Part shown: piece after piece, positions 65-54,556 of the stretch | Layout of the letters: every line of letters starts with the position of its first letter | Position numbering within the stretch: position 1 is the first letter of the stretch | From: Candidatus Omnitrophota bacterium | GTDB lineage: Bacteria; Omnitrophota; Gorgyraeia; Gygaellales; Profunditerraquicolaceae | Assembly (NCBI GenBank): GCA_030650425.1 | Contig: JAUSED010000005.1 | Coordinates: 142,932-206,931 of the forward strand | Reading direction: 5' to 3' | Length of the DNA stretch: 64,000 nucleotides | The notes under the pieces: generated by a model | What the model was told of the DNA's origin: nothing | Databases searched by the model: none | The model's input: the letters and a program-made list of their open reading frames with translations, nothing else | Made by a program: the position numbers and the translations under genes

Positions 65-3000
65 TTGAGAATGCCAGAATCGGAAGAAGGCATCGGGACC
101 GCGAATTTTATTATAACCAGCCTCTCATTTTTAATACAGGAATTGGTTGGAAAAGATAAATTTGCAGGCTGCGAGTTTTTGATCCGCTTTGTTAATGAAG
201 GAGATAATTTCGCAAAAACCTTCTTTTTCGGCGAATCTTCTAATGTAGAAAACCACCGCAATCTAATAATCCGTTATTCCGCCTCGCCGCTGGCCGATGA
301 GGAAAATAGAAACGACCTTTCAATCATAAGGCATAAAGAAAGCAAGGGTCTTGTTGAAATGATTCTAATGCGGTCATTAGAAAAAGGCCTTCTAAGCAAG
401 GAGGAGGTAAGATCATTCTTTGGTTATCTGCTTGAGATCTATAAACAGATAACTCTGGAAGCTCCTAAGGTTTTCGAAGTAATCAGCCTGTTGATTGATC
501 AAGATGCTATGATTCGGAATAATATTGATGTGCTCAAGGGTAGAATTCTTGATCTGATAAAAAATGAAGTTTGGGGGATTTATGGGAGATTTCACGCGTT
601 TAAATTTTTAAAAACAATTCTTACAAAAACGAAGTTTTTAACCAAAAATAATATTCTGGGAGCAATAGACTTTGTCAATAAGATTATTCTGCAGCACGGA
701 AGTGAAGTGTATAAAGTTTTTGAATCACTTGAGGACCTTTTTATCGCGGCACAGTTCTCTACAATGTCCGGCGGTGTCCTTGATTTTGAACGCTTAGATA
801 GACTCGCGAATGTTGGAAAGAGCAAGCTTTGGAAAGTTTACGCATCCTTAGCCAAAGCGCAGATTATCCCGCAAGAAAACACTAAGGATGTTGAAAACTT
901 ATTAACCGAAGCAATCCCTAAGCATATATATATACCCGGATACCCGCCTTATGTTCCTGAAGAAGCTTATGACGCCCTGATTGAATGGCAGGAAGCAGGG
1001 GCCTTAACTACTTCTAATATAGGGAGAATTGCGCAGATATTCAGGAATGTGGGAGACAGCGCGCATCAAGCAAAGATTGACGCAGGCCAGACTGGATTAT
1101 TCTTGGGTGCTTTCGGCCGTTTACGCGCCGTTAATGCGGCGAATCTTAATGAAATTGAGCGCGTCTTTATTTATTTTATAGAACAAGACTTGCAAAGGAA
1201 AGATAAAGGCCAGCTTCTTGAAAGTATAACAAACCTTATGGATGCAATAGATAGGCTGGTGGATCGTAAAGATGTGGATAGAAGCCTTGTGATGCCTGTT
1301 TATTTCAGCCAGCTTGAAGTTGTTAAAGATATTCTATGGCTGCATAAATTTTATCGAGATGGAAAATTTGGCGGTCTATTAGTTAAAAGTATTAAGGAAT
1401 ATAAAACAGGACAGAATCCTCAGGCAGAACTTTATGAAAATGTTCAACAGGATTTAATATATAGGCTTCAAGAATCTAAGTGGGTGCCGATTGATGGATT
1501 AAAAGTTTTGACTGTGCGCAGAATATTAATGAGCAGCCGCTTGGATTATGCTTTAGATAACTTTGGGCCAATACATCAAATATATCTTAACAACGGTCTT
1601 GACGGAAGGAAGACAGGAAATTCTCTGGATGACCGAGAGATTATGCGAGCTTGGGTCAGAATTGTGGAGCTGGCTTCTTTTGGAAAAGTTGAAGGCAGCG
1701 CTTTAATTTTTCGCATTGGCGATTCGGAAAGGCTAATCGTGAATTTCGTGAACGGCCAACCGCTGGAAGCGGTATATCCGGAAACTGTTAACGCCTCATT
1801 AAATCAAGCTATTCAGCTAAGGAAGAAATTGCTGATTAAGCGATTAGCAGGGGAGAACGAAGGATTTGAAAGCACTGCCTTGACCCGTTATTTGATACAG
1901 CTTGAGTTGTTACATCTGTCCGGTATTTTAAAAGGCCGCATTTTCTACCCTTCGATGGGTAACGATTATCTGCCCGCTTATTTCGGTACAGTTTTCGCGA
2001 CCAATCTGTATTCTGGATTGGGTGAGGACCTAGAGACGTACCTTGATGGTAAGAATTACGAAAAAGGCATGTTTTTATATGATTATTCGACACTAGCTCA
2101 GATTAAAGCAGACGTGGCTTTGGAGCCGGGATTTTCTCAGACATGGCAGGAGCAAGATACGGATATCCATGTCTTCTGGAAGAATAACTTTGATTTTAAC
2201 GCGTATCTGCCGCAAGCCGCAGCAGAAGGGCCTATGGACACAATAATCATTAAAGGAGTAACCTCTTGGTTAGGGTATTACATGGAAGAAAAAGCTACCT
2301 TGGGAATGACAATTGAACAGGCTATGCAGGGATTTTTTGGGCAGCTTAAGGAGTATTTAATAAAACCCGGCACAGCCATTGTTATTCTTGATTCCGAAGA
2401 TTTATGGATAGAAGATTTTCTCAAAACAACATACGGTTATCAATCTATAAATAAACTGTCCCAATTCAGGGCATTAGCCGAAGATCTTAAGCGCATACCC
2501 GTACGAGAAGAACGCCAATATCTCGGGAGAGTCAATACGCATGTGGGGCTTGTGCCAATAAAAATTCTTATAGCACCACAGTGGGATAATGGGAATAGTT
2601 CCATTAACAAAGTTGTAGAGCAAAAAGTTTCCTCGCCGCTGCAAAGAAACCAAGACGCTTTATCTAGCCCATTATCTAACAAGAAGTTGAGCAGAGGGGA
2701 CAGCGTCCGATTCAACAGCAGTGTAGACAGTTTATCCAGCCCATTATCCAGTAGGGAGTTACAAAACACTTCCGCCGCCTCGCCGGTTTCGAGAAAGAAA
2801 GAATTACAGAGGTTACTGCGGCAAGAAATCGCATTAATCAGCATAGGCGGGGCCTTTGTGGATATATTCTTCAATCAGGACGGGTCGGTATCAGAAAAAG
2901 CAGGCGGTTGCGAAGGTAATCTTGTAGTCAACTTTACAAGGATGGATAACAGAGCAAAAGCGCTTTTGGTTAGCAATCTGGGGGCTGATAAACACGGACT

Positions 3001-6000
3001 GTTTTTACGCGATTTGTATGGAAGAATCGGCATGAATTTGGCAGGGCTCTTTTATGAAAAAGGCCTGCCCACAGGCACTGTTGAAGTGAGGCGGGAATTT
3101 GACGGTCGCGGTAATGAAATTTCCCATAGATTTGATATAGACGATGGAGCATACCCTCAGCTTTCTGTTGGGAAAATTGTTTCATTAGAAAAAGTTTTTC
3201 AGAAGGCCAAATTCTTACATTTTGGTTTAACTGCATTATTTCCTGCAACCCCTGTTGCAAAGGCGGTAAAAAAGGCTGTTGAATATGCAGAGCAATATTC
3301 TCTTCTGGTTTATTTTGACCCTAATATCAGGATTTCTTCTTGGGTTAAGATGTTCGGTACTCATGAACTGGCGGCTAAGAAAATAATCGATACAGTCAAG
3401 GATACCCTCAGGTATGCGCATATTATTAAGATAAGCGATGAAGAGTTGTTTTTCTTGAACGGAACAGAAAATAACCATAGCGGCATAGAAGAAGAGATTT
3501 TTAAGTTTGTGAGTGAATACAAGGAGTTAAAGTGGGTTCTATTGCTTGTTACCTGCGGCGAAAGGGGAAGCGAGTATGTTTTTCGCGGCAGTGGCACTGA
3601 CAACAAGAGAGAAATTGCCGCGGGCCATATTGAGGTGTATAAAAAATGGCCTTTTATAAGCGCTGTAGGCGCCGGAGATTCATTCAATGCCGCGGTAATT
3701 TCACGTTTATATCAGCTGCTTAAAGAGAAAGAGCTAAGCCGTATGACAGAAAAAGAATTGATGGATATCTTGAACTTTGCTTCTAAGGTTGCGGCTAAGG
3801 TTGTATCACAGGAAGGCGCTGTGCTTGAAAGAGAATGGAGGGGTAGGAAAACATCCAGCCCTCTTGACCTAAACGAGCTTATAAATGATCAGCTCAATGA
3901 TGTTCTGTTTAAGGCGCAAACGTTAGCAGCATCCGGAGACCATATAACTGCCCTATGGTTTTTAATGAATACGGCTAATCTCAGCATTTTAATTAACAGC
4001 TATAAGGGCAATCCGAAAAATATCGAGAGAATCAAAACCGCCCTTGAATTAGCAAAAAACTTGAAAAAAGCCCAAGAAGAAGCCAATGGGATTCTAAGCA
4101 GAGGCGCTCAGGATGCAATCAATAAAAGAATCGCCTTGAATAGAGAGCGCGTAGAAAAACTTCTGATTCCGGTTACGGATATCAAAGACATCCGTCAATA
4201 TCTACCGTATTTCGGGACATATGCCGTGGCGGGCATGCGTATCGAGAAAGTAGTGCATGTTTACGCGCCTTCTGTTATTGACGATATCAGCGCGGTAATT
4301 TTTAGATACAGGCGGCCGAAAGTCGACAAGAATATTCTTCACTACGCGATTTTTGTATTGGATAAGCCTAAAGCTCCAAGCCACCAGTTAATCGCGCGAG
4401 CTTTTGTGGAGAAGAATTATCAATACCACAACGGAGGCTCTGTTAGCACAACTACTTTTGATAAAAAAAGGAATAGGCAGAACAAAATAGAGGTTAAGTC
4501 GAGCATGGAAAAAGGAATTGCGTTGTTTGTCTATGCAATGTTTCGCTATGGAGGAGAGGTATGGTTATCAGATATTTCCCGGTCTGATTCAGCTACGCGT
4601 ATGTATCAACGTATTAAAGAACGCATCGAGGAAGATTTATACCCGGGGTTATTGATTGAGTATTTTCTTTCTCCAAGAAGGTGGCGTATAAGTATTAATT
4701 CGAATAGCGAATGGCTGCCTCCTATAATTATTACTGAGATTCCTTATTCCCCAAATGATTTAGCCAGCAGCCCAGTGGTTCAAAAAAATATAGAGATAGC
4801 AGAAAGCGCCGCCTCGCCGGCGTCCCCAATTTCTTTTGGGAATAATTCTATAAAAGTAGAAGTTAATGATTTGATTAGAGCTATAGAAACCGCTCTTGGT
4901 TTTGAGGGGGAAATTGAATTTGACGCAGTTAAGGCCGCCATTAAAAGCGCAGATAGGCTTTCTGAGTTAGGCGTATTAGCTACAGAAGCTTTGCCCGTGT
5001 TAATTAAAGCCGCGAAAGAACAGCGTTTTGACGACGATGGTGTATTTTGCCGCGACCATTTTATCGCAGCCTTAATACGGATATCTCCTGTTGAGGAAAG
5101 AGTAGAGAATTGTTTGGCAGAAATTATTTTAAGTGACCCCAATGAATATTCAAGAAGCGCAGCTGCAAGGCAGTTAGTAGAAGGGCTACAAATTCCTTTT
5201 AATAGTTTGGCGAGATCTGCTTTAGAGAAAGGCGTTCAGGAGAAAAATTGGCGGATTTCTAACCCATGCAAAAAAGCTTTAGGCTTGCGTTCCAGTTCGC
5301 CTTTCAACTCAGGCCGTGACAAGCTTAATCCGTTTGTGATACTAACAAAAAGTAAGTTACGGGAGTTATCTATAACTAACCCTATGGCTTGGCATTACTT
5401 GCAAGCTAAGCGTATTGAGGACGGAATAGATGTTTATGTGAAGAATATTAGCAAAGCACCCGAATTTGCCAAAAGGTTTAATGAAATATTCAAGGAGGTT
5501 GAAGCAAAAAAAGATGAATTGCAGAAGCTTGGGTTAAGAGAACAAATAAGCGAGATTTATGAAATAATGTTAAGGGCTTTTCCTAGGTTAGTATATGAAA
5601 AAGGCTATTGTGTGTTTACCGCGGCTGGAATGGCAAGATCCCTGAGAAATATTGGGCACAAGGATATCGCAATATACAGAATAATAGCATTAACTCAATC
5701 GTTTGTAATTAAAGAAGCTGGAGAAGAAAGCGAGTATATTTATATCGACCATAGGGCAGAGCAATTTATTATAAGAGAACCTATAATAGAATCTATAATG
5801 GAACCTAGAGGTATGAAAGAGTTGTTGTGTTTAAGTTTACCTAGTATAGATAAAATTTCCAGTTCGCCGCTGAAAGAAATAGTTGGAGCGACGGTGGTGA
5901 CGCGAGGCGCCGCCTCGCCGGTTTTGGGAAAAATAGAACTATTTCTAATTTTAAATAGATTTGATTTGAATTTCGCGAATACTACTAAAATGCTTTATAT

Positions 6001-9000
6001 TACGGGTTACAAGCGTGGATTTGTTCTTGAAGGCAGTGGCAGCGATAAGCGAGTCTACAACCGCGGCATTATATGTTCTTTTAAAACGAGCAGCAATTCT
6101 TACAATGGAGCTAGTTATATTCAGGACAGCAAATATTTTTATGAAATTAAGAATATTTTCTTCTTGGGCAGGAGTCAGTGTAGGATACACCAAGAGTTCG
6201 TATTCGGTGAGGACAGAGATACTGGCTTTAATTCTTTTATTCTCGAGCTCCTCAATAAAAGCGGTAACGCTTTTATCTCCTCGCAGGTGATCAATAATAA
6301 TATTGGTGTCGATAAGGTATCGCATAGATTAAGAGCTAATTCTTTTAAGAACACCGGTTTTCCATTCCCTGCGGATTTTATTTTCAAAGGCAATTCCTTT
6401 GGGGGCTTTACTCAAGATACCCGAGCTTCTCCTGATGAGATTAATAGTAGTAGAAATAGCGGCTTTTTTAAAAGAAAGTGGTATAGTTATCATCCACTTG
6501 ATATCTTCGATCTTTTCCTCAAGGGTTTCCAGCAATTCCATAGTTTTATTATCCATCAAATACCTCCTGCTTTAGTAACCGAGATAAATATATCACATAG
6601 GCATAAAGGAGTCAATATTTATCTAGGAAGCTGTTTCCGTCCACCTGACGCCTCCGCCGCCTCACCGGTGGCGAGTGTAGTCAGTACGCAATATGACAGT
6701 GTAGTATGGGCGGAGAAGGTGGAAGAGGTATCCGGAAATCCGGTAGAGCGCTTAGCGCAGATTATCCAGATTGCGGCGCAGAATGATATACAAGCTATAA
6801 GAACCGGGCTTATCGGGCTGCTTAATCTATTAAGAAAACACAACCGGCTCTATCGCTATCAAAGCGCAAGGCTGCTTTCCCAATTAGCTAAAATAGAGTT
6901 TTATGAGAAAATACTGCGCTCTATCGGCGGAGGAAAACTGATTGGCTTAATTCATTTGATCCCCCTTGAAGAAAGATTTGCATTTGAGGTCCCCGATTTT
7001 ATCGTTCTTCCTCCCGAGCTCAGCAAAGAAGCGGAAGAACGGATTTTTGATTTACTGGAGGAAGGCGTTTATATCTTAAGGAGCAGTTCATTCTTTGAAG
7101 ATACAGAAGGTTTTCCGATACGCGGCGCGTATGAGTCGGTATTTTTTGTCAAAAACCCCCAACAAAATGAATATCGCAAGGGATATGATTTAGAAGTTTT
7201 TAGGAACGTGAGGGTAAAAGTAAACAGAAGCTTTAGAGACTTTAAATACGCTGAAGATAGGCTATGCTTATTGTTAGAGCGGGTTCCGGGCCATACGGTG
7301 ACACTTAAGATTGGTTATGCTAATCGCAGCTGCTATTTTCCGTCGTTTTCAGGTGTTACTAAATATAATCCCTATAAACTAAGCCACATAGTATCGGAAA
7401 TAAATCCCGGTTTGAATACCCCCACGGTTAAAGGAGGATATCACCGGTTCGTCGATAAGGATACTGAAAGCGGAGAAATAAAGGTTCCAGAAGTTTCCCG
7501 GACTTTGCGGCTTTATGGGACTGGGGATGTAATAGATATTTCACGTAACAAGTTAATCAGCGCAGACATAGTGAATAACACCTTGTCATTATGGGTAGAT
7601 GATTCAGATAGTTATAAAGATACATCTTTGATTAAAGGCGTCCATGAAAAATTAAGCGCTATTATCTTGAGCTTAAAAGAAGATTCAGGCTATAGGGAAT
7701 TAGAGTGGTCGTTTGATTCCGGAAAGCTTTATGTCTATCAGAATACGCCAAGTAAAATATGCCGTTCTTTGTCAAGAATAAAGGTAGATATACCAGTTGT
7801 CCCTGAAGAGCGCCTGATTGTCTCTTGCGCCGGTGTCTTTGGCCACGGCGAATTCACCGGCCCCTTAGTTTGGGTTAAAGACAGAGATGAAATTATGTTG
7901 AAACGAGAGGAATGCAAGCGCATAGCCAGAGAGTTTCCCCGAGGGTATATTTTAATAGGCAGCCGTTATTTGTTTATGGATCCAGACATGGAATACGCAA
8001 CCAGCCAATATTTTGATTCAGCTTTAGGCAGACTCAAAGGCTGGGTAGACACAAGCGGCTTGCCGCTTTCCATTTGCGCGCATTACGCGGAGGGATTAGT
8101 TGACAAGAATATTATAGTTATTTCTCAGTCAGCTATCGATTACACTAAACTGGAGCGCTTCTGTGATCAGCAATTAAAAACCGGTATTTTCGATGATTAT
8201 TATGAGATACGTTATAGCGAGGCTTTATTCCGCATCGCCGCCAATGCTCTGCAAGATAGGGGCATACTGTATCTGGCCAGCTCTCCTGGCCCCGCCGCTT
8301 CGCCGCTTAACAACGATGATCAATTTAATGCCAACATGCCAAAATCAAGAGAAGATGGCGAATTAAAGGGGTATTTCGTCCTGGCGGTACAAAACACCAG
8401 AAATGTAGACACTTTACGTAACTCATCGACTATCAGCGAGTTATGTAACAAATACGATAAGGACAATATTACACAAACCAATACCGCCGCCTCGCCGGTT
8501 TCGGAAAATAGGAAGGGACAATTCTATCGTAACTGTTCATCGGCCATGGAGATAGACAGAAACGGTCTGAAGGATTTCGACGGGTTAAAAGTTATAGATA
8601 ATGAGGAAGGGATTTTTCTGGTTTCGAATCGTCTTGGTGTCAGAATCAAAGCTCAACGAAAGTCAATCGAATTTGAATTTATTTCCTCTCCGCTGTTGTC
8701 AACCGATGTACGCCTGCGAAGTGTACAATGGGGTAGCTCTCCGGTAGAAAATAGTAATTTTGAAAAAGCATATTTTGGTATTTTAAGAGAAATTTTCGGC
8801 AGTGAAAATAAAAAAATATGTTTCCATAGCACTGTAATCTTGGCTTTATATCTTGAAAGAAGCAGGCATAAAATAAAGATACTACCTTCCAAAGAAATTC
8901 CCCCTGTTCCTTGTTTCAGTGAGACATACAGCGAGATAAAAATAGGAGTTTTTGTAAATAAAATAACGGGTAGTTATTCTTTACAGCATTGGTTAGAATT

Positions 9001-12000
9001 TACCAGTTTAGGGAGAAGATTTTATTTAGATGCGGTCTATAATTCATTATGGGGCAATGGCCGAGACAGGATTATTTACGAAGAGATATATCCATGCTTG
9101 TTAGAAAATAAATACAGTCTTTACCCAATCCACGATATGGAAAAATTTTTACATAGCGGTGATTCTCAAATAAGAGAGCTAATGGTTGCAAAAGGAGAGG
9201 CTATATTGCGAGATGAGTGGAGGGTGTTTGGAACAGGTGAGATAGCGCTTCTAGATTTTCTGCCTCGATTATCGAACGGAGTAAATATCGCAAAAGCTGT
9301 TAGAAAGCTTATCGATGCATCTGTATCTTTGGAAGAGAATGCCAATGGTTTTATTCTAAATAAGGAAACTTACAATGCCTCGCCGCTGGCTTCTTGTAAC
9401 TTGGAAAAAATAGAGACGGTTAACTTTTTGAGTTATAGGCGAAAGATGTCTTTACGGCAGAAAGTGCTAAATGAGAATCGAGCTGCTTCACCCATGGGTA
9501 TTCCTAATAAGGTCATAACGAAAGAGCGGTTTGATGACCTCCTTAAAATTAAAAATTATGCTAATCCTCACGGTGAATATAAGAAGGTCTGGTATCCAGC
9601 TTCTGCTTCTGATGTGGGATTAGCCCTGTATGTTACTGATGGAGACAAATTTATCCTTTCAAATTTTGAGCATTTTGGAAATATGGATGATTTCAAAAAG
9701 TTTCCTGATGATGAGAAAGAAAAGCATTATTTCTTAAGGCGCACACGTAGCTGGCTTGAAGAAGTTCACTATGAAAACAGAATAAGCGCGCAGATTTTCT
9801 CTGAGTTAGAAGCGTTGGGCATAGATTACAATGATGTAGAAAAGTCAAAGATTAATGATGCCACTTTTAAATTGGTATTTAATTGGCGGCATCCTTTAGG
9901 CAATAGAACTAAGGAAAGAGTTATCGAATATAGAAATATACCCGTTCAAAGGCCGCCGTATTATCCGGAAGAGAAAGTAGATATCATAATAATTAAAGCA
10001 TTAAACGGATTCAATTTAGATCCAGAGGGCCTGTTTTTTATTTTAAATCCAGATGGGCTTATAATCAGCGATTTCTGTTTCAGCGATGTTTGGTATGAAA
10101 GAGTAAAAAATAGTCCTATTGCATTGAAGCTTAACAATAAATTTGGGTATAGTGCTAGGCATATCTGGTGGGCATTAGGAGAGGCGATTGAACTAGCAAG
10201 AGGCGAGGATGTATTTTTGTACAAGAACACCCCCGCCGCCTCGCCGGTTTCGGATGAAATAGGAGGACAGCCCCGTAGTAAGAGCAATTTTGACAATGAA
10301 TTTGCAGGGGCTGACCCTAAAGCTTTTTCAGGAGTAGTTATTTATGCGGGAGGATTATTTTCTTTTATAAGAGAGGACGGCGAAAAGGTCCACCGCAATA
10401 ATAATAAAAGCAATAATATAAAGAAGTGTCCAGTTATCCATAATGGGTTATTTCTTTCCCTTGATTACCCGGAGGAATATAACAAGGGCCAAGAGCCCCG
10501 CCAGGATATAGAAAGCCAGAAAGTTCATCGTTATTCTTTTCCCAATCCTACAAGAAATGTAAGCCATGGGATTTTACCCGAAGCAGTCGGGACAAATACG
10601 CCTACCACTAAGGACCCAAGCAATATCTTTGCTCCGTCCAGAAAGAAGTCAGATAGAGTGTCTCATTCTTGGCCAGATAACATACACCCCTATTCTATTG
10701 TCTTCAGGAATTTTGTCAAGAGTTTCCCCTTACGGAAATCCGCCGCCTCGCCGGTGGAAAATCGATATACGGATACATGGCTCAATGGATTACCTCTATT
10801 GCAGATCTTGGGAATCTTTGGAGGGATTAAGCGGCAACCGTTCTACTTCGATATGAAGGGCCGTATCGTACAGGCATACGGATGGGATGGCTTGCTAGAT
10901 GCTGTCTTGACGGCTAGGGATTCAGGGGGCGATACGTCCAGATACATAGAGAATAATGACTATATCAAATATATTGACTATTTAATCAGAGAAAGCCGCT
11001 GGGATACAAGCGCCGCTGATAATTTTAGCAAGTTACTGTTGAGTATAAAGGGCGAAGACGCATTCATAACTTTTAGTCAGGAAGTTCTGTCGGGGCTTTT
11101 GACGATAGTGGAAAAACATATTGAGGCCTATGTTGAAAGTCGTCATCTTTTCCGCGCACCGCAGGAGACCGTGGTCCAGCGGCCGGAATCTTATCGTACG
11201 GTGAAAAATATTTATAGAACGGAAACAGTTTCCTTCACAGAATGGAAACAGCTTTCATCTCTTTTGATGGCGGTATCAGAATCTAATCGTATTGGCGCGC
11301 TTATCCTATTGCTCGGGAACCAATGGGCGGCTAATTCCGCCTCGCCGGTGACGCTTGATGAAAGAAGAAACGTATTATTCCTTATCCCTATGGAGATGAT
11401 ACGCAGTGCTGGTAATAATAAGGAGGTTTCCGTTAAGTTGGGCTGGCCGTATGGACTTAAGGGCTTCCAGCAATACTCTATGTACTTTATCCATGGTTTC
11501 GGGAGTAATCCGCAAGATAATAATACCAGTATGATTTCCCAGTGGATAGAGCGCAATATTGGAAAAGTCCCGGTCTCGCGTAAGCAAAACAGCCTTGCGG
11601 GATTTGGCGATTGCTATAACCCTGCCATTAACCGCTTCAGCTTGTTTCAGTTCTTTGAGAGTAACGCAGTCAAAGCCTGCTTTGCGCAGCAGGTTTTCGG
11701 TTTCTTTCCAGACACAATGGTCAAGCAGGAACATAAGATTACAGGTTTAATGGGAATGTTGAAGTTCCTCCGCGAAATGAATTTCTTCTTCATCGAGGAA
11801 TTGATTGGCAAAGGCTATGCAGGCAAATATGTCTTCTACTTTCAGATCAGGATAGAATTTGTCAGAACAGATATCTTTAGGGGAATATCCGCTAGCCAAA
11901 AGCTCCATAACCATAGAAACAGCTATACGGGTGCCCTTAATATGGGGTTTACCATGGAGTACGTGTGGATCAATAGAAATTCTTTCCAGCAACCTTTTGT

Positions 12001-15000
12001 TCATCGATTAATTCTCCTGTTAGTAGTATTTAACATCTTTGGTAAGGAAAGTCAAGGTGAATTTATAATTAAACGCGAAGATCCGGAAGGCCCGGGGGAT
12101 CTACAGGATCTGGATCCGGGGGCATATGACTTAATTCTAAATAAGTATCGTGTCTCCGGAATTGCCACCTCTTGGGGATTAAGAGATATCCGAAGCGCAG
12201 ACATTATACAAGATATCTATTATGCATTAAAAATAATAGAAGATTTAGGCCGTAGATTAGGGTTATCAGGCAAGATGATTGATGGGGCACATAAGGTTTT
12301 TGCGCAAGTAATCTTTGCAGCCAGCCCGTTGGCCGCCGCCTCGCCGTCCTCGAGCCGTGTCTTAAGAGATGGCTCGAGGACCCCGAGCGAAGTGAGGGGG
12401 CAGGTGGATGAAAATCAGGCTAGCTCGCCGGTTAGAGAAGAGGAAGCTGCTGTCAGACTAGAAATTGCCAAAAAGCTTTGTCATAGCTTAAATAACGCTG
12501 TCAGTGGTTTTTATGCTTGGTTAACTTATTTGGAGCGGAAAACCCCTCATTTTGATAGAGGAAAAGGAAATACCCTTCTTGGGAAGATTAACGATTACAA
12601 TGAGCTGGTAAGCGAATCGGAGGAATTACTACAAAATCCGGATAAATTAAAGGAAACAGTTAATAAATTGGATACCCTAGTAAACGAAATTATAGAAATA
12701 TTGCCCAAGTTACGTAACTTTTATGATAACCAGGAGTTAACAGGAAGCATTGCATTAATTGGAGAAATAATTTCGGATGAATTACCAGAAAAACCGGTAA
12801 ATTTAAGCGAGGTTTTGCCCTGGATATTTCGCAGCGGGACGTTTTATCATGATTTTATGATAATAGATTACAAAAACTGCCTTGGGAAAGACGCATTTGT
12901 TTTTGTCAGCAAAGATAAACTATGGATTGTATTCGATAATTTATTGATGAATTCCATACAGGCTTTCCAGAAGTTTGATGTTATAAATAAAGAAGATAGA
13001 AGGGTTACGGTGGAGTTGGGTGAAGAAAGAGATTATTATACGGTTGTTTATTCCGATAACGGCCCGGGGATACCCGAAGATTTATTAAGCAACATCTTTG
13101 ATCCCTACGTAACAACTAAGGTCGGAGAACCCATATCGGGGTTGGGGCTTGCCATATGTAAGGAGATAGTCGCTAAGGCAAACGGCAGCATTACTGTAAA
13201 AAGCAAACAAGGGGAGGGCGCTACTTTTACTGTTTATCTGCCTAAAGAAACAAATGTTTTCGGAAAAGAAGGCGCCGCCTCGCCGCTGGCTGGTGAAGAA
13301 AATATAGGCCGGGAATTACAAGAGGCATTTGATAAAGCCGCATTGGATTTATTGTATTGGTTTTGCGGCATTAAATATCTTCCTTATGATTGGAAAATTC
13401 GTGCTTATATAAGGCCTTTAAGGCGAGGGGATTTACAGTTTTTGCTTGAAGAAAACTTCCCTACATTACTTTTTGATTTAAGGATAAATTGGTTTGAAGA
13501 AGTGATTGGCTATCGTCTTTACCCGGAAAGCGCAGGAATAAGAGAAAAAGAGATTATGCGGGGATTAAGAAAAGAGGTTTTTGATTGGTTCTTAAATAAT
13601 AGGCCGGCTGTTTTGGAAGAAGAGTTTGAAGGAATAAAAATAAAAGAATTTATTGAAGCGGCTATGACATCGACAGAGCAGCATTTACAATACTTAGGCC
13701 AAATGCTTGAGTTTATCAAAGGAGGCAAGCGGCAATCATTCGCTCCTTTTATGCAAAAAACGTTTAAAGAATTTCTTGAGAGAAGGATTAAAATTCTTAG
13801 ATGCCTGCGTCATATTGATCCAGCGTTTGTAATACACAAACTGCCTTTGTATGAGGAAAGAGTTAAAGAGATAGAAAATGAAGATATTGAGAGCGAATTA
13901 GAAGAGGCAAGAAAAGCGGGCAAAGAGGTTAAGGTTATAATAAAAGAAATCGCCAGGTATGAAGATACAGGCAGGCCATCTAGTCTTAGGGTTGAATATG
14001 AAGGCGAGATTGGCTTTGTGCGCATAAGAAACAGCGGTTTTAGCTCCTGGGCGCTTTCTCAACACCCTAAAGCTATTATTGGGGAAGAGGTTTACGCAAG
14101 GGTAATTGCTGTTAGGCCGCTTGAGTTTGGATTAATCAAAGAAAAAATCGATATTCCAAGAGTAGATACGAGGATTGTTTACAGGACAGACGCGGCTGGA
14201 ACAGGAGATAATAGGTTTAAGGAAGCCTTTAATAAGGCCGCGGAACAAAAAGCCAAAAAAGCTAAAAAAGGCCCATCCTCGGGTTCTCCGCTTGAGGAAG
14301 AATTCAATTTTTTGCGGCTACCGGTTAAACAAATAACAAATAAATGGCTGGAGTATATAAGAACAAGTTTTAGTGAAGACGAAGCCGCAAGTTCAAAGAT
14401 GAAGGGCGCGCTTAATGATTTAATTCAGCAGCTCGAAGCTTTAGGCGCAGAGCCTTTTGATAAGACAACAGAAGTAAGTATAGGTGATTTATATATAGAT
14501 ACCCTCTCCGGCACTATTACAAAAATAACAGATGTGAGAATAGGGCTTACCTGCGAGACGGATAGAATATACCCTATGCGCAAAGAGAAAAGAGAGCTGG
14601 CTATGACGGGTGGTAAGTTCTTATTAAGAAGAAGCGGTGTTTCTAGAGAGCAGGCAGAGTTAGCCTATCGGTCTCAAAGAGCAGAGAAAATTATCAAGGA
14701 TATCGAATTCGCTGTAGCAGTTAGTAACCACAAAATGGCTGTCGATTTTATAGAGGAATTAAGAAGGGATTATTCTGATATTGTTAGCTGTGCTAAATTA
14801 TCTGAACTGGATAGGAAAGTCGGCACTGTTCATCCAGACACACCTACTCCCGCTGCGCACAAGGCTTCTTCGTCAATTAAGAACAGCCTTACACTTTACA
14901 CATTAAACATTGCACAAACCATTCCCGTCGCCTCGCCGGTAGCGAAAATAAGATTGCTGGGAGATTATCCTTTAGCTAAAAATTCTTCCGGCAGCATTGT

Positions 15001-18000
15001 TTCGGTTAATCTTGAGGCAATTTTTAAGAATTTGGTATCGCGGGTAATCAGAATCGTGCCTGGTGAGGATAAAGCCAATGAAAGTAATATGGTATCAAAT
15101 GGGTCTAATGGATATTCTTCTTGTAATTTATTAGCCCGCAACAACTCGATTTCATCGGGGATTAGCACTTCAAGGAGCTCAGTTAGTTTATTGGCATCTT
15201 TGTTAATCTCTTTGGCAGGGTATTCTTTCTTGCGGCGGAGTAGAAACCTTATTTCTAATAGCGTAGTTAAAGAAATACAGCCTTTGATTTCCTTTGTTTC
15301 GACGCGGTTGATAATTTCAAAAGGGGCCTTCCAGAGATTCTTATTAGTAGCGGTTTCTGTTTCTTTGAGCAGCCAGTTAGCAATGACATCCGTATCAAGC
15401 AATACCGTTTTAATCTCTTTCATTGGGTTGGCAATAAATTTATTTTACCTTACCGCAGAGACTAAGGCGTTGGCCTTTGATAAAACCAGTGGAGGTTTTT
15501 CCTGCAGGAATAACCCCCTTGTACTTACCAAGCAATTCTCCAGCGGTGTTCGTCTTGCTAATTTTGGAAGTTTGCGCTTCCGTTCCCAGTACCCTCAGAG
15601 CTTCTCTCAGTGTAGTCATATCTCATCACCTCTAACAAAGGTTAACATAATCTCAAGACGCCGTCAAGATAATTCCGCCGCCGCCTCGCCGGTTTCAAAA
15701 GAAGCAGAAACAACTAAAACATTACTTTCCTTCCCAATTGCCGACTTGGATAAAGTTTTAAAGCTGGGCATAAAGTTGTTTGATTTTGGGTGTGGGCCTA
15801 TTGCCGGATGCCGCGGAGAATGGGGTTCTACTATTGTAAAACATTATCCCTATATAAACTATTATGGTATAGATGCGCAATTTTGTCTTGAGCGGCAATT
15901 GCGCCTGCCTTTTAGAAGACTCTTAAGTCTATTGGGAATACGCTTGGCAAGAGAGAGGATGAAATTTGAAATACAGTCCTATTTTGAACCGTTGCCGCAA
16001 GAATGGGGTAAGGCCGACATTATCATCTTAAATTCTCCTGAAATCACAGAGGATTATTTGGCGCGTATTAATAAGGGAGAGGTGGCGAAGGCGTTCTTTA
16101 AAAATCTCAAAGAAGGGGGAATAGGTTTGATTCTTTTTGAATCACATCTTTATTCATCGATAAATTCACTAATTACATATATATCTAGAGAGGCTGTGGC
16201 AGGCGGCCGAATGTATAAATCTTTCTCTATGGAATTTGGCGAAGAGAACATTAACCAAACAAATATCCCTAAGAATTACTATCCTGAGAAATTGACTGCC
16301 TATAGAAATTGGCAATTTGCCCAGAGAAATAACCGTCCTGATTTTGAGATTAGTTTTATCCAGGTTAGGAAATCGCTAGTAAATGGTAACGCTCCCCAAA
16401 GGGACACCTCTGCTACTCAAGGCGCCGCCTGCACTGAGCGAGCGCAAGCGAGTCGAGGCGCCTCGCCGCTAGTCTTGGAAGATAAGGTAAATGAAGAGTT
16501 AATAATATTATACGTGTTAAAAGATGAAGTATCGTCGCTTAGCGATAAACAAAAATATAACTTCGTTAAAAACAGGCTTTCCCTTGAGAAGAGAATAAGT
16601 TTATCTATCCCCGCCGCCTCGCCGGTGCAAGACAAAAACAGAATGTTATATGGAGGAAAACAGGCAAATTTATTAGGTCAGAAATATCTTGAAGGTATTT
16701 CCTTAGGCGAAGGCGTTACCATTGAAGTTATGGCTGCCGAAGAAGAGAATATTTTTACAACCGATGATTTTATAGATTTTCTTGTATTTAACAACGAATT
16801 AGTCAGTCAGATAGAGCATGTTTTGAAAGAATCCGGCAAGATTATGGAAGAAGAAATTCAAGGTTTGTTGTCGCAATTCGAGTTTCCTAAATCGCTCGAA
16901 GAGAAAGCGAATATTATCCAAAGCCATTTTGCTAAAGATGTTCTGCTTCTTGCCCGCGGTTCAGGGCAGAAAGAGGGCTCCAAAGAAGCAAGCCGCTCAG
17001 GAGTTTCTTTAAGTAAAAAAATTGACACTGAAACCTCTCTTTTTGAAGTCCTCCAGGAAATCTATCTACACGAACTAAAACAGGTATATCTTAAAGAGAG
17101 GCAGTCAATTTTGAAAAATCTTCTGGCGGTGACAGTTGTGCCGTACATAGATTTTGATTGCGGCATCATTGGCTCTTATTCCAAGAAAGATAACTCAACG
17201 ATTATTGATGTTGTCGTTGGCTCTTTAGAGACGGCCGTAGACCCCGCGAAACTGGGTTTAACCACTAACGAACGCCAGGTGCACGCCACAGCCCTGACTA
17301 TCAAGGTTCAAGATGGCAGGATTTTTGTTGCTAAAGAATATAACCTTAGGCCGCAGGAGATTATATATAAAGGTAAACACTATTTTCGCGAAAAGGCGAC
17401 CAAAGAGATATGGGAAGCAATGACAGATGTAATAGATGCAGAAAACGTGAAATGTATTCGCTGCCCGTTAAATAAAGACGAAATTTTAACCATTGATAAG
17501 CTAACGCGCCTGGCGGCTGAAGAATCCGATGCAGATATTTTATGGGAAATAGGCAAGATCGGCCGTATCCACGAACCTGCTTATGAGCTTTATATCCTTC
17601 AGGCAGATCCTTTAGTGCCTGTCGGATTTTATCAGCCTATCCCTGATAATTTAGAAAACATTATGGCGCGAAGTTATATTTCCCACGGTAATATACGCCT
17701 TGAGCGGGCAGTTGTGATGCTGGTAGAGGCGGGAGCTAAGGCAAGTTTTGTGGAAGCGGCCGCAGAAATCTTGGCTGAGGCAAGGATTCCTTTTATTAAA
17801 GTTCAGCGTCAGGCAGCCTGCCTTGATTTAAGCTTAGCGCACCGGGCAGCCGTAGAATGGGCAAATGTTTTGATTGATCCTGCGGCGCCATCCAAGTGGC
17901 CGCATACGCAGGTAAATTTGAGGGATTTTATTCGTGAGCATAATCATTCATTGTTTTTTGCCGATGGCAGGGTTTCCCAATTGGCTTTTGCCGGCGGCAG

Positions 18001-21000
18001 GGCTTTTCAGGAGCCGCTTCGGCGCTTAAACTATTGGCGGTTCGGAGGTGGCGTCTATCTAAGCGAAGAGTTGGTCGGTTTTATAGCTAATGACAGAGAA
18101 GCGATTATGTTCGGCCCAGCGCAGGATAAGAAGGTAACGGATTGTTATAGCAGAAACGGCCTTAGCCATTATTTTGGCAGCCATATTACCTTTTTAAGCT
18201 ATTTATTTGATGACGAGCTTAGAAATGGCTTTCTTTCTTTTGAGCCTACGGACAAAGAGCAAATGGATATAGTTTTTGGATACGCGATGGATTATTTGCT
18301 GCAAAGGTGCAAGAAAAGAGAGCCTCTTATGCCGGCATTGGAAGAATTACTTTCTAAGATACGGTTTGAGGAAAAGCAGAGGCTTAAAGAGGCAGGCGGT
18401 TATTATTCCTCCTGGGATAAAGAAAAAATACAAACCCTCATTGCAGAACATCCGCAGGCAGAAGCGCAATTATCCGCGTTAAAAGAAGAGATCAATTGGC
18501 TTAGGCGTCTTATTGCCCTTCCATTTTATCCAAATTACAGCCAGAGCCATATTACCAGAGCAGTGTTAAAGATTTTTGATGGCACCCGCGGTTTTGAGTG
18601 GAGATTTGGCGAAGAAATACAAGAAGCACATCCAAGGCCGCAAGGGCCGTTGAGGATTTTAATTGTTGATAGAACCCTTATAACGAGTCTCTACCTTAAG
18701 TCTTTTATTGAGGCGAATTTTAGTAAAGCAACAGTTGAAGCAATATATAATTGTTATGACGCGGCTGAAAAAATACCGTTTTTTGTACCGGATATTATCA
18801 TCTTAGATGGTAGGACCTCACACGATGATTATGGGCACGAATTAATGAGGAAGTATAACCAATTATCAAACGCGCCGCGGCTGATTTTAATTAGCGCCTG
18901 GGGTTTAGGCGACCTCTACCATGATACACAAGAATTGCGGAACGCTTATGCAAAAATACAGGTCTTAGGTTTTTACTCCCGCAGTGAAAACGAAGAAAAA
19001 ATTATCCCCTGGTTTAAACAAGTAGAAGATGAGATCAAACCAGCAAAAGAAGAAAGCCAAACCGCTGAAAAGAAGAAAGTAACTATATCTAAGGTGCTTT
19101 TTATTCATTATTCTAGCGAATTATTGAGAAATATTAGACTATATACTAAAAAGGCGCCTTTTGAAATCCTGACAGCTGATACAGAGGTAATGGCGGTTGG
19201 CATGATTAAAAAGCATCGTCCTGATATATTAGTCTATGACGTTAATTTTACACTTGAATCCCAAGCGCCTATAATCGGAGAATATATTAGGGTAAAAGGA
19301 GAAAGCGCTTATGTGATTCCTTGGTCAGCTGCGGAGTATTCCTTGAATGAAATCCGTCAGAGGCCAGGATGGAAAAAAATATGCGCACAGATAAAATTCC
19401 TTGATCCTGTGGTGATAAATTCAGATGCCGCGTTTTCGCGCTCCGGAGAAGGCGTAGATTATGTTATGGATGAAATCTTTAGGATAGTTTCAGGCCTGAC
19501 CGGGATTTCATCCAGCCCCTTAGCCAGCCCCGCCGCCTCGCCGGTCAGAGAAGAGGAAGCTGCTGTCAGATTAGAAATTGCCAAAAAGCTTTGTCATAGT
19601 TTAAATAACGCCGCCAGTGGTTTTTATGCTTGGTTAACTTATTTGGAGCGGAAAACCCCTCATTTTGATAGAGGAAAAGGAGATACCCTTCTTGGGAAGA
19701 TTAACGATTACAATGAGCTGGTAAGCGAATCGGAGGAATTACTACAAAATCCGGATAAATTAAAAGAAACAGTTAATAAATTGGATACCCTAGTAAACGA
19801 AATTAAAGAAATATTGCCCAAGCTACGTAACTTTTATGATAGTCAGGAGTTACTAGGGAGCATTGTATTAATTGGAGAAATAATTTCGGATGAATTACCA
19901 GAAAAACCGGTAAATTTAAGCGAGGTTTTGCCTTGGATATTTCGCAGCGGGACCTACTATCATGATTTTATGAAAATAGATTACAAAAACTGCCTTGGGA
20001 AAGACGCATTTGTTTTTGTCAGCAAAGATAAACTCTGGATTGTATTCGATAATTTATTGATGAATTCCATACAGGCTTTCCGAAAGTTTCATACTCTAAA
20101 GAAGGAAGATAGAAGGGTTACGGTGGAGCTGGGTGAAGAGAGAGATTATTATACGGTTGTTTATTCCGATAACGGCCCGGGGATACCCGAAGATTTATTA
20201 AGCAATATCTTTGATCCCTACGTAACAACTAAGGTCGGCGAACCCATATCGGGGTTGGGGCTTGCCATATGTAAGGAGATAGTCGTTAAGGCAAACGGCA
20301 GCATTACTGTAAAAAGCAAACAAGGGGAGGGCGCTACTTTTACTGTTTATCTGCCTAAAGAAACAAATGTTTTCGGAAAAGAAGGCGCCGCCTCGCCGCT
20401 GGCTGGCGAAGAAAATATAGGCCGGGAATTACAAGAGGCATTTGATAAAGCCGCGGAACAAAAAGCCAAAAAACCTAAAAAAGGCCCATCCTCGGGTTCT
20501 CCTATAGAAGATATCACCGCCTCCCCAAGAGGCGGAGCGGATAAATCCCCAAGAATTCTTGATCCTGACTATAAAAAATCTTCGCGTTTTATTGAAATCG
20601 ACCCGGAATATTTTCTGCCTGACACTCAATCCGGATTTTGGCTAATCGGGAAAAATGCTAAAGACATTTTTACAACTTGCACCGATATTGTATTCTTAAC
20701 TAAAGAAGAAAGAATATTCCTCGCTCATCTTCAGATTAATCCCAAACACCTTGAGAGCACAAACGAAAGGCAAAGCAAAGAACTGTTAGAGCGGCTGGTA
20801 GAGGACTGGAAAACCTATGGAGATAAGGACGAAAAAGGCCAAGGAGTCAGCACTTTTAATCCTCGAGAAATATTTAACGCGACAACTAAAGCGCTGTTAC
20901 TGAATAAATATCCCGCAAGAGAACCTTTTACTAATTGTTTAAGAGATTTTTTATTAGAGAAGGGGCTGGGTAAAGATAATATAAAAATAGATTTTGCAGC

Positions 21001-24000: not shown

Positions 24001-27000
24001 TACCGTCGTATTTGATGAAGGCGCCGGAGACGGCCTCTTATCCAGAATAGCTTTAAGATTGGGAGCGCGGAAGGTGGTTATGATTGACAATAAGCGCTGG
24101 CTATTAAATCTAGCGAGATTGTTCCTAAAAGAAGACGGTTGGGGCAAGATAGAAGAGAGGGAAGGCAAATTTGTTATTTTAGAGAGAGATTTAAGAGCCA
24201 TTTCTAGGTTGAAGATAGAGCTCAAGAGCTACCTTCGCGATAATAAACGCCTTGTGGTTATTAAAAACATCGGTCCTTACGAGTTTTATGGCAATGGCGA
24301 GACGGAACAAGCGGCTATAGATTTAGTAATTGGCTTGCCTGAACTTAAGCTGGTGATTAATGGAGGATATATAGGCAAAAACAATCTGGACAATTCCGGC
24401 CTTCATCAACGAGCTCTTACTGAGGTTCAGGAGGAATTTGTAAAAGAAGGCTTTAAAGTCCGAAGGTATGATTATAATATTGCGGCTATATTGGCAGCAA
24501 AACGGGAAAACCCTCATATTGGATCTAGCCCCTTGAATAATAAAAGGGACGCCCTTGGAGGCTCGCCAATTTCTACCCCCCTTAGGTTAGGCACAATAAT
24601 TCAGGTAGAGTTTATCAATGGGGCTTTAGCTGCTGTTGTCTCAAGCAGTATTTTAGTAAAGCCGGTTAACGAAGCTATTTTGTGCTATTCAGAGACGTTT
24701 GGCGCAAGCTCTACGCTTGAAGATAACTACACAGGACTTTTCCCGCCTCAGGGAGGGAATAAAAAAGATATAGACGCTTTATCCAGCCCATTGTCTGGCA
24801 AGGAAACGCAGGTTAAATCTACCGCCGCCTCGCCGGTGAAGCACAGTACAATTCAGGAAGCTGAAAACAAATGGCAGTGTGAGTTAGAGGAAATAAATGC
24901 TGCCCATTTTTCGAAAGAAGGAGGTTTTATTGAACATCACGGGCTGCCTCATTCACAAAGGATGTGGGAAAGCGCCAAAAGGCATTTCGGCGGGCATAGG
25001 ATTGATTTCGAAGTGCTTATCGCAGCTATTTATCTGCACGATATTGCCGTGGAGATAGTGAAAATAGCGCATGGCGCTGAAGCCGCTAAAATGGTAGAGA
25101 ATATTTTGCAAAATATAGGTTTCCCCAAAGATAAAATCCGTTATGTTTACGAGGCTATTCTTCAGCACGATGATTATAAGGCGGTAAGAGAATCTATGGA
25201 AAGTAAGATTATTTTTGCTCTAGACACAGAAGATGCTTATTTTGAAAAAGGGGCAAGATACTTGCCTATTTACCGTTTTAGAGGCATACCCGAAAAAGAA
25301 ATGTATCCCGCGATTATAGAAAATATCAAACTGCGTTTTAATTTGGTTACAGATGAGTTAGCCGAATTTAAAGTTCATCTTAAACTGCTGAAGGACGAGG
25401 CGATAGAAGAAATGGAAAGAAATGCAAATGCAGACGCTTTACATAACTTACCGCATATCAGCAAGTTAGGAGAGAAATCTCTAAGCGACCAAGACCCCGC
25501 CGCCTCGCCGGTTTCAAAGGGAAGAGAATCGTCCCCTAATTTTACGCAGAAAAAAGATACGCGGTGGTTATATTTGGAAGGAGAAGAATTTAAGCCTATA
25601 GGCGAAATATATAGAATGTTAAATAAGATTTACTATTCATTAAGGGCAGGTGGTATTTATACAGATTTTAAGACTTCTATCTCTAAAGATAGCCTTATCG
25701 CTCAAGTTTATGCCCAGCAATTATATAAGAGACTTATTGCAATAGGCAAAGTTCCTCCAATTATATATATCCATGAGTGGGGCGGGGCGGACGGAAAGTT
25801 CGCAGTTGATTTCTTAGACTCTTTTAAGAAGTTAGACATCGAGAATAGTTATTATCCACGTATATATTATATCTTAAGCGATTTTTCCTTGGCAATGTTG
25901 AGCATCGCTCGTAATAATCTCAGCCTTAGCTGCCATAGAGATCGATTAGCATATGTTCAATTTGACGCTAACGAAGAGCTGCCATGGAAAAAAGGCAGCG
26001 CCATGCTTATTCAGTTTCATGAACTTTATGATGATTTGGGCGGAGTAGAGAAAATAGTAAAAATAGGCAATGAGTTTTATCGAACAGGGGGAAGGTTGCG
26101 CCTGTCAGAAGATGATAATTTTAAAAAGCATGATGGAGCGGATGTAAACGCCGAGACTTTTTTCAACGGATATTGGAAACGCGGGCTTACGGGATTAAGT
26201 GAATTGGAGCCGTCTTTCCTGAAGGAAATTACAATTGAAGAAAAATATGATCCGATTGACTTAAGTACATATCCTTATGCAGGATTTCTAAAAAATTGGA
26301 CAGAGGGTATACATTCAGCGGTTTTTCCTTTGAATATAGGAGCGTTACAAAATCTCGAACGCGCTCTCGAGGTACTTGATTTAGAACGCGGCGCCTATAT
26401 CAATTTTTCTGATTACGCGTTTGTTTCCAAGAAAGGCCTAGTAGAAAGTTCACAAAAAGGTACTTTCATGGGAACCCTTGAATGCGGCCAGCCTACAAGC
26501 CAGATTAATTTAGCTTTCTTTATCTATATGTTAGCAGGAAGTAATCTAAAAATATCTTGCGAAAGACAGGAGAAATTTTTGAGCAGGCGTCTTGGTAGGG
26601 AAGTAAGAGAAAGAGATGTTTTGATAAAGGAGATTTTAAGTTTTTATCTATCAGAGAGAGATAGATTCGGCTATGATCTTGATTTTCAAGAGCAACTTTT
26701 CAAAGGAATTGAAATTCCAGATTTGTTTAGAGTTGATATATTGGATAACGGAGATTCGTCTGCTGAGGAACCCGAGGATCTAAGAAGAGGCATTTTTAGA
26801 AGTCTGGTAGCGCAATGCATAAACAATCATATGGACAATTTGATTAATGATTGGTTAGATAAAGACGAATTATTGGAGGAGTTGCTTAACGACCCGTCAT
26901 TGCAGTTTCTATTAGGGCGGATAGGGAGTGTTGATCCAGAAACCGCCGTTACTATTTTCACTAACAATTTATTTAAGATTAGAATACCGGAAGGGCCGAG

Positions 27001-36161: not shown

Positions 36162-36192
36162 GAGTAACATTTGAGGTTTAGTTTTACGTCAT

Positions 36193-36284: not shown

Positions 36285-36305
36285 GGCTCAAACATTTAAA
36301 CATTT

Positions 36306-54554: not shown

Positions 54555-54556
54555 AG

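Follow-up and report, generated by a model that had tools for sequence, protein, structure and literature searches.

A reading frame that stays open over the first 28.3 kb of a 64,000-nucleotide (nt) stretch from a Candidatus Omnitrophota bacterium (assembly GCA_030650425.1, contig JAUSED010000005.1, positions 142,932 to 206,931 of the forward strand; this whole stretch is called the window here) raises the question of what joins the unrelated parts of which it is built. Between these parts the short peptide [AS]SP[VL] recurs, and with it a nucleotide core that encodes it. The open reading frame (ORF) is a mosaic of about 35 gene-sized cassettes in one frame, and every cassette that can be annotated corresponds to a whole stand-alone protein. 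The recurring element, designated the junction, is specific, strongly over-represented, and conserved both as peptide and as DNA. We consider it likely that the junctions are in-frame joints for the gain, loss and exchange of cassettes, and that they probably serve a translated polyprotein as linkers or processing sites.

The visible part of the ORF is its 3' part and lies on the forward strand at 2–28369. No stop interrupts it back to the window's first full codon, so the ORF extends upstream and its 9,455 codons are a minimum; the full length is very probably above 10,000 amino acids (aa). Its frame contains no stop in 28.3 kb, while the remaining forward frames contain 700 and 924. Most segments score host-like in the ORF's own frame under a codon model trained on the downstream genes. 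Pfam and NCBIfam recognized PfkB/fructokinase, two copies of HATPase_c (the histidine-kinase core), a receiver domain (Response_reg), an HD phosphohydrolase and, weakly, a methyltransferase. No Pfam family dominates, the HATPase_c pair stems from a duplication, and most cassettes have no Pfam match. The fructokinase model spans positions 7–293 of its 302 within the cassette at aa 905–1263, and the histidine-kinase models stop at their natural C-termini, 7–12 aa ahead of the junction at aa 4405. With the C-terminal 955 aa as query, exhaustive HMMER searching found the cassette from aa 8480 also as stand-alone proteins of 350–400 aa, the N-termini of which lie about 0–25 aa from the junction, and elsewhere as an internal module of other long proteins. 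The sense cassettes have neither stops nor start codons at their beginnings, and all are fused in one frame. Other searches were less productive. An N-terminal segment of 855 aa had zero homologues among 5.8 billion proteins, a result list from which the query itself was also missing; homologues of the histidine-kinase cassette were ordinary short kinases only, with at most 45% identity, which is uninformative on modularity; and a PDB sequence search with two large cassettes gave no matches.

The peptide [AS]SP[VL] is present in the ORF in 41 copies, against 0.65 expected from composition, while the 24 neighbouring proteins have one copy in 10,893 aa total. The 14-nt core GCCGCCTCGCCGGT has 25 matches with no more than two mismatches (0.3 expected), all on the + strand, inside the ORF and in its reading frame. 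Two classes of junctions were recognized. Those with the peptide xSPV number 22 (2777–28159, + strand), usually open a long cassette and have the consensus CGCC-GCC-TCG-CCG-GT; the first base of their [AS] codon is at 2777, 4766, 5912, 6659, 8489, 8735, 10238, 10745, 11339, 12422, 14930, 15683, 16616, 19535, 21203, 22871, 23582, 24827, 25502, 27083, 28097 and 28148. The sequence-only reading of this DNA had proposed an alignment of the junctions with their flanks. When anchored on the S-P codons, it revealed conservation limited to about 16 nt, abrupt at both ends and with unrelated flanks, and despite these flanks GCC-TCG-CCG-GT is common to 17 of the 22. The second class, xSP[L/I/M/F/A], has 27 members (281–28060, + strand), which typically close a cassette, and their first bases are at 281, 2630, 2663, 2735, 3854, 4811, 4820, 5294, 5861, 8297, 8684, 9377, 9485, 12320, 13277, 14282, 15623, 16460, 19511, 19523, 20390, 20495, 23477, 24524, 24560, 24782 and 28049. 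An ASPx or SSPV motif typically follows them 11–36 aa downstream. They are written in several unrelated codon sets, namely GCC/TCC-TCG-CCG-CTG, TCY-AGC-CCA-TTR and TCA-TCA-CCT-CTA. About one third of the junctions retain the peptide without the nucleotide core.

The codons of the junctions differ from those in the rest of the ORF. Serine is TCG in 31 of 49 junction positions (63%) vs 58 of 633 elsewhere (9%), alanine is GCC in 25 of 28 (89%) vs 116 of 576 (20%), and proline is CCG in 34 of 49 (69%) vs 77 of 331 (23%), with Fisher p-values of 1e-10 to 1e-18. This bias, together with the same peptide encoded by unrelated codon sets, indicates constraint on both the nucleotides and the peptide. 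That the peptide is kept through unrelated codon sets was absent from the sequence-only reading, and it points to a role at the protein level beyond recombination alone.

These codon sets bear directly on the possibility that a dedicated, integron-like site-specific recombinase acts at the core and that the peptide is an incidental harmless linker. Such a site would account for 16 nt that are sharply conserved and always lie in one orientation between unrelated flanks, for one cassette common to separate arrays (see below), and for cassettes that are mostly orphan, some of them toxin-antitoxin (TA) genes; orphan and TA cassettes are typical of chromosomal integrons. However, SSPL is encoded both by AGC-CCA-TTR and by TCG-CCG-CTG, and since serine codons TCG and AGC are not connected by synonymous single steps, the AGC-type SSPL argues for selection on the peptide. 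Furthermore, the core has no structure or dyad symmetry (2 of 16 positions are self-complementary), no integrase was found in the window, and the dominant core of a second giant ORF, described below, is a different one (..CCG-CTG). A DNA-level role alone is thus quite unlikely.

Whether the junctions are points of recombination was approached through the longer repeats around them. The sequence-only reading had listed four pairs of such blocks and had considered them a graded family of junction elements. All four pairs are present essentially where it had placed them and none is expected by chance, but a family they are not. The first is a composite linker, the second a diverged protein module, the third a mini-cassette, and the fourth belongs to a segmental duplication. 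The composite linker (DALSSPLS) is GACGCTTTATCYAGCCCATTRTC at 2654–2676 and 24773–24795 (+ strand), both with 0 mismatches, and a third copy with 2 mismatches, which had been missed, is at 2726–2748; 100 shuffles gave 0 matches. Two of the three copies (+ strand, 2726–2788, with DSLSSPLS, and 24773–24838) continue via a similar spacer of 10–11 aa to an AASPV core, as SSPL-SSRELQNTSA-ASPV and SSPL-SGKETQVKSTA-ASPV, respectively, and so form a composite SSPL-spacer-AASPV linker. The second block, RIKAQ...FEF-SSPL...VRL...SSPV, is a real repeat and longer than the roughly 110 bp claimed for it, but not near-identical: its internal copy at 8546–8755 and the copy at the very C-terminus of the ORF at 27912–28119 (both + strand) share 71.6% of nt over 215 bp with 7 gaps. 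At the protein level they are 44% identical over 93 aa (E = 5e-15), as a diverged protein module, and a profile of this module found no relatives in JGI metagenomes. The IVGATVV pattern is matched exactly at 5878–5898 and 28114–28134, and the similarity runs from junction to junction, at 5861–5922 and 28097–28158 (+ strand, 82.5%), with a spacer of 13 aa. These mini-cassettes are SSPL-KEIVGATVVTRGA-ASPV and SSPV-ERIVGATVVILGV-SSPV, respectively, and the end of the second is the last junction of the array.

The fourth pair, the EQKAKK linker at 14232–14289 and 20445–20502, is 96.6% identical, but it is not an independent block, since its second copy is contiguous with a duplication of 918 bp. 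The objection, raised in the sequence-only reading itself, that the repeats are explained by large duplications only is therefore right for this pair, while the other three blocks are different things. The duplication (12424–13341 = 19537–20454) is ungapped and 96.2% identical. Its copy 1 is the histidine-kinase cassette at 12424–13341 (+ strand), with the 5' breakpoint in the junction core. Copy 2, at 19537–20502 (+ strand), is contiguous through the EQKAKK-KKGPSSGSP block at 20435–20502. The corresponding block of copy 1, at 14222–14289 (+ strand), represents the duplication's 3' end, displaced from the rest by an extra segment (13322–14242, + strand) of exactly 900 bp or 300 codons. This segment is bracketed by 21-bp imperfect direct repeats at 13322–13342 and 14222–14242 (peptide EAF[DN]KAA), and the difference is consistent with either a loss from copy 2 through recombination of the two repeats or an insertion that duplicated its target. 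At the 5' edge, identity starts within the junction core, from CTCGCCGGT, and the upstream sequences are unrelated; at the 3' edge, it ends right after GGTTCTCC, which encodes S-P of the degenerate junction SSGSP[L/I]. As both edges lie in S-P codons, a unit of two cassettes was copied from junction to junction. No further internal paralogy was revealed by tile-wise blastp of the ORF.

Three cassettes score as non-coding in the sense frame and carry intact TA genes on their minus strands. Cassette 1 (5912–6658) encodes a PIN toxin at 5951–6325 (Pfam 6e-15) and a small upstream gene at 6329–6559, with an AGGAGG ribosome-binding site and a promoter-like sequence at 6615–6587 (TTGACT-17-TATATT with TG extension) inside the cassette. 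Cassette 2 (11339–12319) encodes a DUF5615 toxin at 11375–11734 (2e-19) and a DUF433 antitoxin at 11747–12004 (4e-22). Cassette 3 (14930–15622) encodes a PIN protein at 14965–15423 (1e-12) in another phase relative to the sense frame; the antisense strand of this cassette has the best coding score, and a partner of the PIN gene was not identified. Cassette 1 is flanked by xSPV junctions with AASPV cores on both sides, while cassettes 2 and 3 span xSPV to xSPL. A 48-nt imperfect inverted repeat at 12340–12387 (CCTCGAGCC...GGCTCGAGG) was noted in the ASPL-SSPV spacer that adjoins the antisense DUF433 operon. A candidate fourth antisense cassette, without homology support, is at 10238–10744 on the minus strand. 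It, too, makes no sense in the ORF's own frame, and it has a near-consensus promoter (TTGACA-16-TAGAAT) at 10719–10692 and a small hydrophobic, Lys-tailed ORF of 39 aa at 10567–10448, MAYISCRIGKRITMNFLAFYILAGLLALVIFLRVIKGKK, somewhat like a type I toxin. Promoter scanning gave no more than chance overall (22 found vs 22.5 expected), and only these two individually strong antisense sites were used. The TA block had no matches in plasmids and phages, and the first PIN gene had none in viral contigs.

Across the three cassettes, 30–53 sense-frame stops would be expected in 807 codons, given the antisense stop frequency of 3.7–6.6% per codon in host genes, and 0 are observed (P from 1e-24 to 7e-14). 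The four codon-aligned TA genes have 0 TTA, CTA or TCA among 408 codons, whereas host usage predicts about 18; read from the opposite strand, precisely these three codons become stops. A tblastn-based metagenome scan with the embedded DUF433 antitoxin found 18 loci. The closest four, which have aa identities of 89, 86, 74 and 51% and come from at least three samples, are likewise antisense in open frames that fill their contigs, while in 13 distant relatives in ordinary contexts the antisense frames are open over just 31–111 aa. One locus (L145, 53% identity) is intermediate, with an antisense frame open over 273 of 475 possible codons and no stop-generating codons. In total, stop-generating codons number 0 of 426 in embedded DUF433 genes vs 38 of 1,227 in 14 other loci including L145 (p = 1.5e-5). 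Selection thus keeps the giant frame free of stops, antisense operons included, and does so in several lineages. Indirectly, this points to translation from end to end, or at least to a strict need for an uninterrupted frame, and to the TA operons as selfish passengers recoded so that the sense frame meets no stop. Stop-free antisense TA operons show, as evidence from genetics, that the giant frame has to remain open; to our knowledge, complete operons nested in another gene with selection measurable on both strands are an unusually clean natural case.

These passengers also bear on the question of whether the frame is a real gene at all, and not a frame that is open spuriously, a chimera of the assembly or a graveyard of decayed genes. 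Several cassettes that make no sense in the ORF's frame, and the 855-aa module without homologues, could suggest that it is not real. Nevertheless, the nonsense cassettes are intact antisense genes purged of stop-generating codons, most cassettes have a host-like coding signature, 28.3 kb are free of stops against the 700 and 924 of the other forward frames, and the same architecture is found in independent assemblies from other samples, so an artefact is scarcely credible.

One of these assemblies is the metagenome contig Ga0315283_10001149 (L142). Its ORF of at least 6,250 aa has 32 copies of [AS]SP[VL] vs 0.53 expected, with GCC-TCG-CCG-CTG (ASPL) as dominant core, and it is also a mosaic of enzymes: amino-acid kinase, GNATs, ATP-grasp, M23 peptidase and methyltransferase. 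It ends ahead of PilZ genes syntenic with those of the window, the proteins of which are only 31–56% identical. The sole similarity between this contig (19.5 kb) and the window (64 kb) is an ungapped block of 723 bp with 82% identity, which covers the two genes of TA cassette 2 and begins exactly at the junction codons in both sequences. A further copy was found on a contig from Hainich groundwater (L143), and the shared block corresponds to 11338–12060 of the window with L142 and to 11376–12060 with L143, at 81–82% nt identity. Between the window and L142, substitutions pile up in the third codon position of the two TA genes (13/11/40 and 5/5/28 at the three positions). The TA proteins are 81% and 88% identical, while the translation in the giant sense is 58% identical and stop-free in both lineages, which has a probability of about 5e-6 under host synonymous usage. 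As the third positions of the TA genes are unsaturated and the flanking orthologues have only 31–56% identity, the cassette is younger than the split of the hosts. It has passed horizontally from one giant ORF to another. L142 and L143 share it from the junction on, with 86% identity over 733 nt; past about 70–78 divergent nt, the next junction is identical in 20 of 20 nt, and beyond it the sequences are unrelated.

L142 has its own longer junction repeat, an in-frame element of 117 nt, SSPL-ADEGSRARLSRYKKAGEGVPSALIGASQARG-ASPL, which reaches from SSPL codons to ASPL codons and is present in six copies (reverse-strand nt 3124–3240 and five more) with 94–100% identity and random flanks. A second composite, SSPL-VDTHDAMHTTLYESLP-ASPL, is present there in two copies. 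The idea of the sequence-only reading that junctions are points of recombination therefore gained support: the edges of the duplication, the beginning of the shared TA cassette and the ends of the 117-nt element all sit in them, and breakpoints of rearrangement and exchange coincide with the junction.

The 117-nt element gave no folding signal (z = 0.0 and -0.76), and Rfam had no match (E up to 1) in L142 and in an Omnitrophota chromosome, L073, described below. This concerns a further explanation, in which the core would act as a signal in the mRNA or the transcription complex, for processing of the mRNA, for translational pausing where domains meet, or for anti-termination or processivity of a very long transcript. 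The strict orientation in strand and frame, the regular spacing over a gene of more than 28 kb, and GC-rich codons in a background of 40% GC would all suit such a signal. Besides the lack of structure, it is opposed by junction codons that are not rare in host genes (CCG 42%, GCC 31%), by the third of junctions in which the peptide is kept and the core is not, and by the breakpoints, which it does not explain; it is very unlikely. Individual candidates of this kind were rejected. A hammerhead ribozyme in the 117-nt element, suggested by CUGACGAG, had no folding signal and no Rfam match; rare-codon pausing at junctions does not agree with codons common in host genes; and internal translation starts at the junction are opposed by its Val codons, most of which are GTT, and by the CTG that L142 uses.

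The core is also found in an 8-kb stretch of the complete Omnitrophota chromosome CP070797.1 (L073), which has 36.7% GC and meets no stop from end to end in the core's frame. Present in it are SSPL, AASPV, SASPV, SSPM and ASPL, two of them written in the nucleotides of the window (the same 20-nt core), and it has no cassette in common with the window. A piece of 1,165 aa from it had no matches in a protein database that apparently lacks such giant proteins. Among the matches listed for a 19-mer core in species-representative genomes, L073 was the informative one, and the others were chance matches in GC-rich genomes; a 17-mer core had single chance matches only in viral contigs.

With these data, the opposite one-sided explanation can be weighed, that the junction is a cleavage or linker peptide only and its nucleotide identity a result of recent local duplications and codon preference. 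It is in agreement with a peptide that is conserved through unrelated codon sets and specific to the giant ORF, with spacers bounded by two motifs that resemble the spacer peptides of processed polyproteins, and with the cleavage of giant proteins suspected in the literature. It does not account for the codon string shared by 17 of 22 xSPV junctions with unrelated flanks, for the same 20-nt core in a genome of 36.7% GC without a common cassette, for duplication and inter-genome TA cassette breakpoints in the junction, or for the six copies of the 117-nt element with about 98% identity that end exactly at two motifs. An effect at the protein level alone is therefore unlikely.

The explanation preferred here, that the junctions join and exchange cassettes in frame and also act in the protein, would work as follows. 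The array would have the order of cassette, SSPL, spacer of 7–35 aa, A-S-P-[V/L] and next cassette, with a directional junction; among motif pairs 6–36 aa apart, SSPx precedes ASPx in 6 vs 1 in the window and 9 vs 5 in L142. At the DNA level, as the breakpoints show, the junction is the place at which cassettes are duplicated, inserted, deleted and swapped between giant ORFs with the frame preserved, and the longer repeated blocks are junction copies that carry an adjacent spacer or small module along or, in one case, a part of the two-cassette duplication. The nucleotide core would then be favoured because it mediates in-frame recombination. At the protein level, we infer that x-[AS]-S-P-[VL] is selected in its own right, and most plausibly it links modules or marks sites of proteolytic processing in a polyprotein that would be translated end to end. 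A linker or processing role would explain why nonsense segments bounded by junctions are tolerated.

Several observations weigh against this explanation. No processing protease was identified in the window ORF by Pfam and NCBIfam, and L142 has only the M23 module, an unlikely candidate; no recombinase or integrase was found in the window (the ORF and 36 kb downstream). A core of 12–16 nt is short for RecA-dependent recombination, and it has no dyad symmetry. The 3' end of the shared TA block is not at a junction, as the similarity fades 56 nt upstream of the antitoxin start, 92–260 nt before the next junction. Finally, 14 other long mosaic proteins with one common cassette are without [AS]SP[VL], so the junction is lineage-specific and not universal. 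Two of these 14, which the HMMER search with the C-terminal 955 aa had found, have recurrent inter-module motifs of their own: P0144 (7,631 aa) has 15 distinct sites of a Cys-hydrophobic motif (16 overlapping regex matches), such as FGCFFPLVFGMFG, and in P0122 (6,657 aa) ...GEDAQGRKKHPIFLKSL is present in 5 copies, each ahead of a hydrophobic stretch. With such inter-module motifs, lineage-specific junctions, or dialects, may be general. A broader and more tentative proposal, possible but not probable, is that an undescribed gene-cassette system is present here, in which an array is translated as one polyprotein, the bipartite junction (SSPL, spacer, ASP[V/L]) is both a joint for capture and exchange of whole genes and a processing or linker site by which each captured module can work independently, antisense TA passengers travel as junction-bounded cassettes and are kept stop-free, and lineages have their own dialects, for instance the Cys-hydrophobic motif of P0144.

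The type of ORF matches class 1, the multi-enzyme metabolic clusters, of the Omnitrophota giant proteins described by Nielsen & Lui 2026 (10.64898/2026.06.07.730766). Alike are an ORF of tens of kb tiled by unrelated enzymes (methyltransferase, HATPase_c, HD, receiver, sugar kinase, HEAT-like), sequences that are largely unique, and a junction core present also in an Omnitrophota chromosome (L073). Different here are the inter-module junction motif, the exchange bounded by junctions, and the nested antisense genes. Such ORFs are reported to be single transcripts and to have been detected by proteomics, with cleavage points unknown (West-Roberts et al. 2023, 10.1101/2023.11.21.568195). Junction motifs, linkers and antisense genes are unmentioned in both papers and in a preprint on Omnitrophota lateral transfer, according to a term search, and a broader literature search found nothing comparable.

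The system is somewhat like an integron array, a processed polyprotein and the module swapping of polymorphic toxins, but it lacks the defining features of each. Integron arrays consist of heterogeneous, mostly orphan cassettes at a recurring site, with TA cassettes and with cassettes common to arrays, and in all this the linear array of the window resembles them. Here, though, the cassettes are fused in one frame without starts and stops of their own, and the junction also encodes a conserved peptide; attC sites are imperfect inverted repeats of 60–140 bp, while the core has about 16 nt with 2 of 16 positions self-complementary, and no intI or attI was found in the 36 kb downstream of the ORF. 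All 25 core matches are on the + strand, different from the inverted sites of a shufflon. With polyproteins of RNA viruses, and with the polyvalent proteins of phages and conjugative elements reportedly described by Iyer et al. 2017, the ORF shares many independent proteins in one product and a short peptide at module boundaries, and [AS]SP[VL] is located at the natural termini of stand-alone homologues. In contrast to them, it is a chromosomal bacterial locus, its cleavage is putative, and its junction is conserved in nucleotides and located at recombination breakpoints. Demarcation sequences for in-frame exchange and stop-free arrays are also known from CdiA (VENN) and Rhs (PxxxxDPxGL) and from Borrelia vls and Neisseria pilS, but in those systems a module is either a variant of a single protein or a toxin tip that comes with an immunity gene, and here the modules are unrelated whole enzymes. 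The motifs NPGP of 2A/StopGo peptides, VENN of CDI and LPxTG of sortase substrates have 0 occurrences each in the window ORF, DPxGL has one match, taken as chance, and no intein was matched by Pfam.

The embedded genes have the features of type II TA systems: toxin and antitoxin domains, promoter-like and ribosome-binding sequences (cassette 1), and an excess of third-position substitutions (DUF433/DUF5615). By Pfam they are ordinary members of PIN/VapC and DUF433-DUF5615 and are under purifying selection, but they lie wholly within the frame of another gene on its opposite strand and are recoded without TTA, CTA and TCA.

The origin and cleavage of giant bacterial genes (10,000–147,000 codons) are a recent puzzle. 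The junction motif gives candidate processing sites that can be checked by proteomics, and a rule by which giant proteins can be split into modules before they are annotated and their structures predicted; it also suggests that giant genes grow and diversify by in-frame gain, loss and exchange of cassettes.

Downstream of the ORF, all on the same strand, are genes for PilZ proteins, an ABC sugar transporter, class II ribonucleotide reductase, MnmG, type III glutamine synthetase and GOGAT. The ORF (65–28369) has about 40% GC and the neighbouring genes (28858–63426) 44–47%; Pro CCG is 23% in the ORF and 42% in the neighbours, and Ala GCA 26% and 13%, respectively. This gap in composition is consistent with a distinct evolutionary regime or a foreign origin of the cassettes. 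The tail of the ORF past the last junction (28159–28369, + strand) is probably non-coding. It contains a copy (28210–28256) of a dispersed 47-bp repeat found also in intergenic positions at 57298–57344 and, inverted, at 46554–46603, and a perfect palindrome of 32 bp at 28293–28324, in which the sole public short-read contig of the strain (Logan SRR13727527, 100% identical over 6,037 bp) breaks exactly. The gene at 34995–36161 has an internal tandem duplication, 35145–35599 and 35697–36151, with 65% nt identity. Further palindromes are intergenic, at 36190–36285, 50227–50302 and 54556–54596, the last related to 36220–36262, and are probably terminators or elements like repetitive extragenic palindromes (REP).

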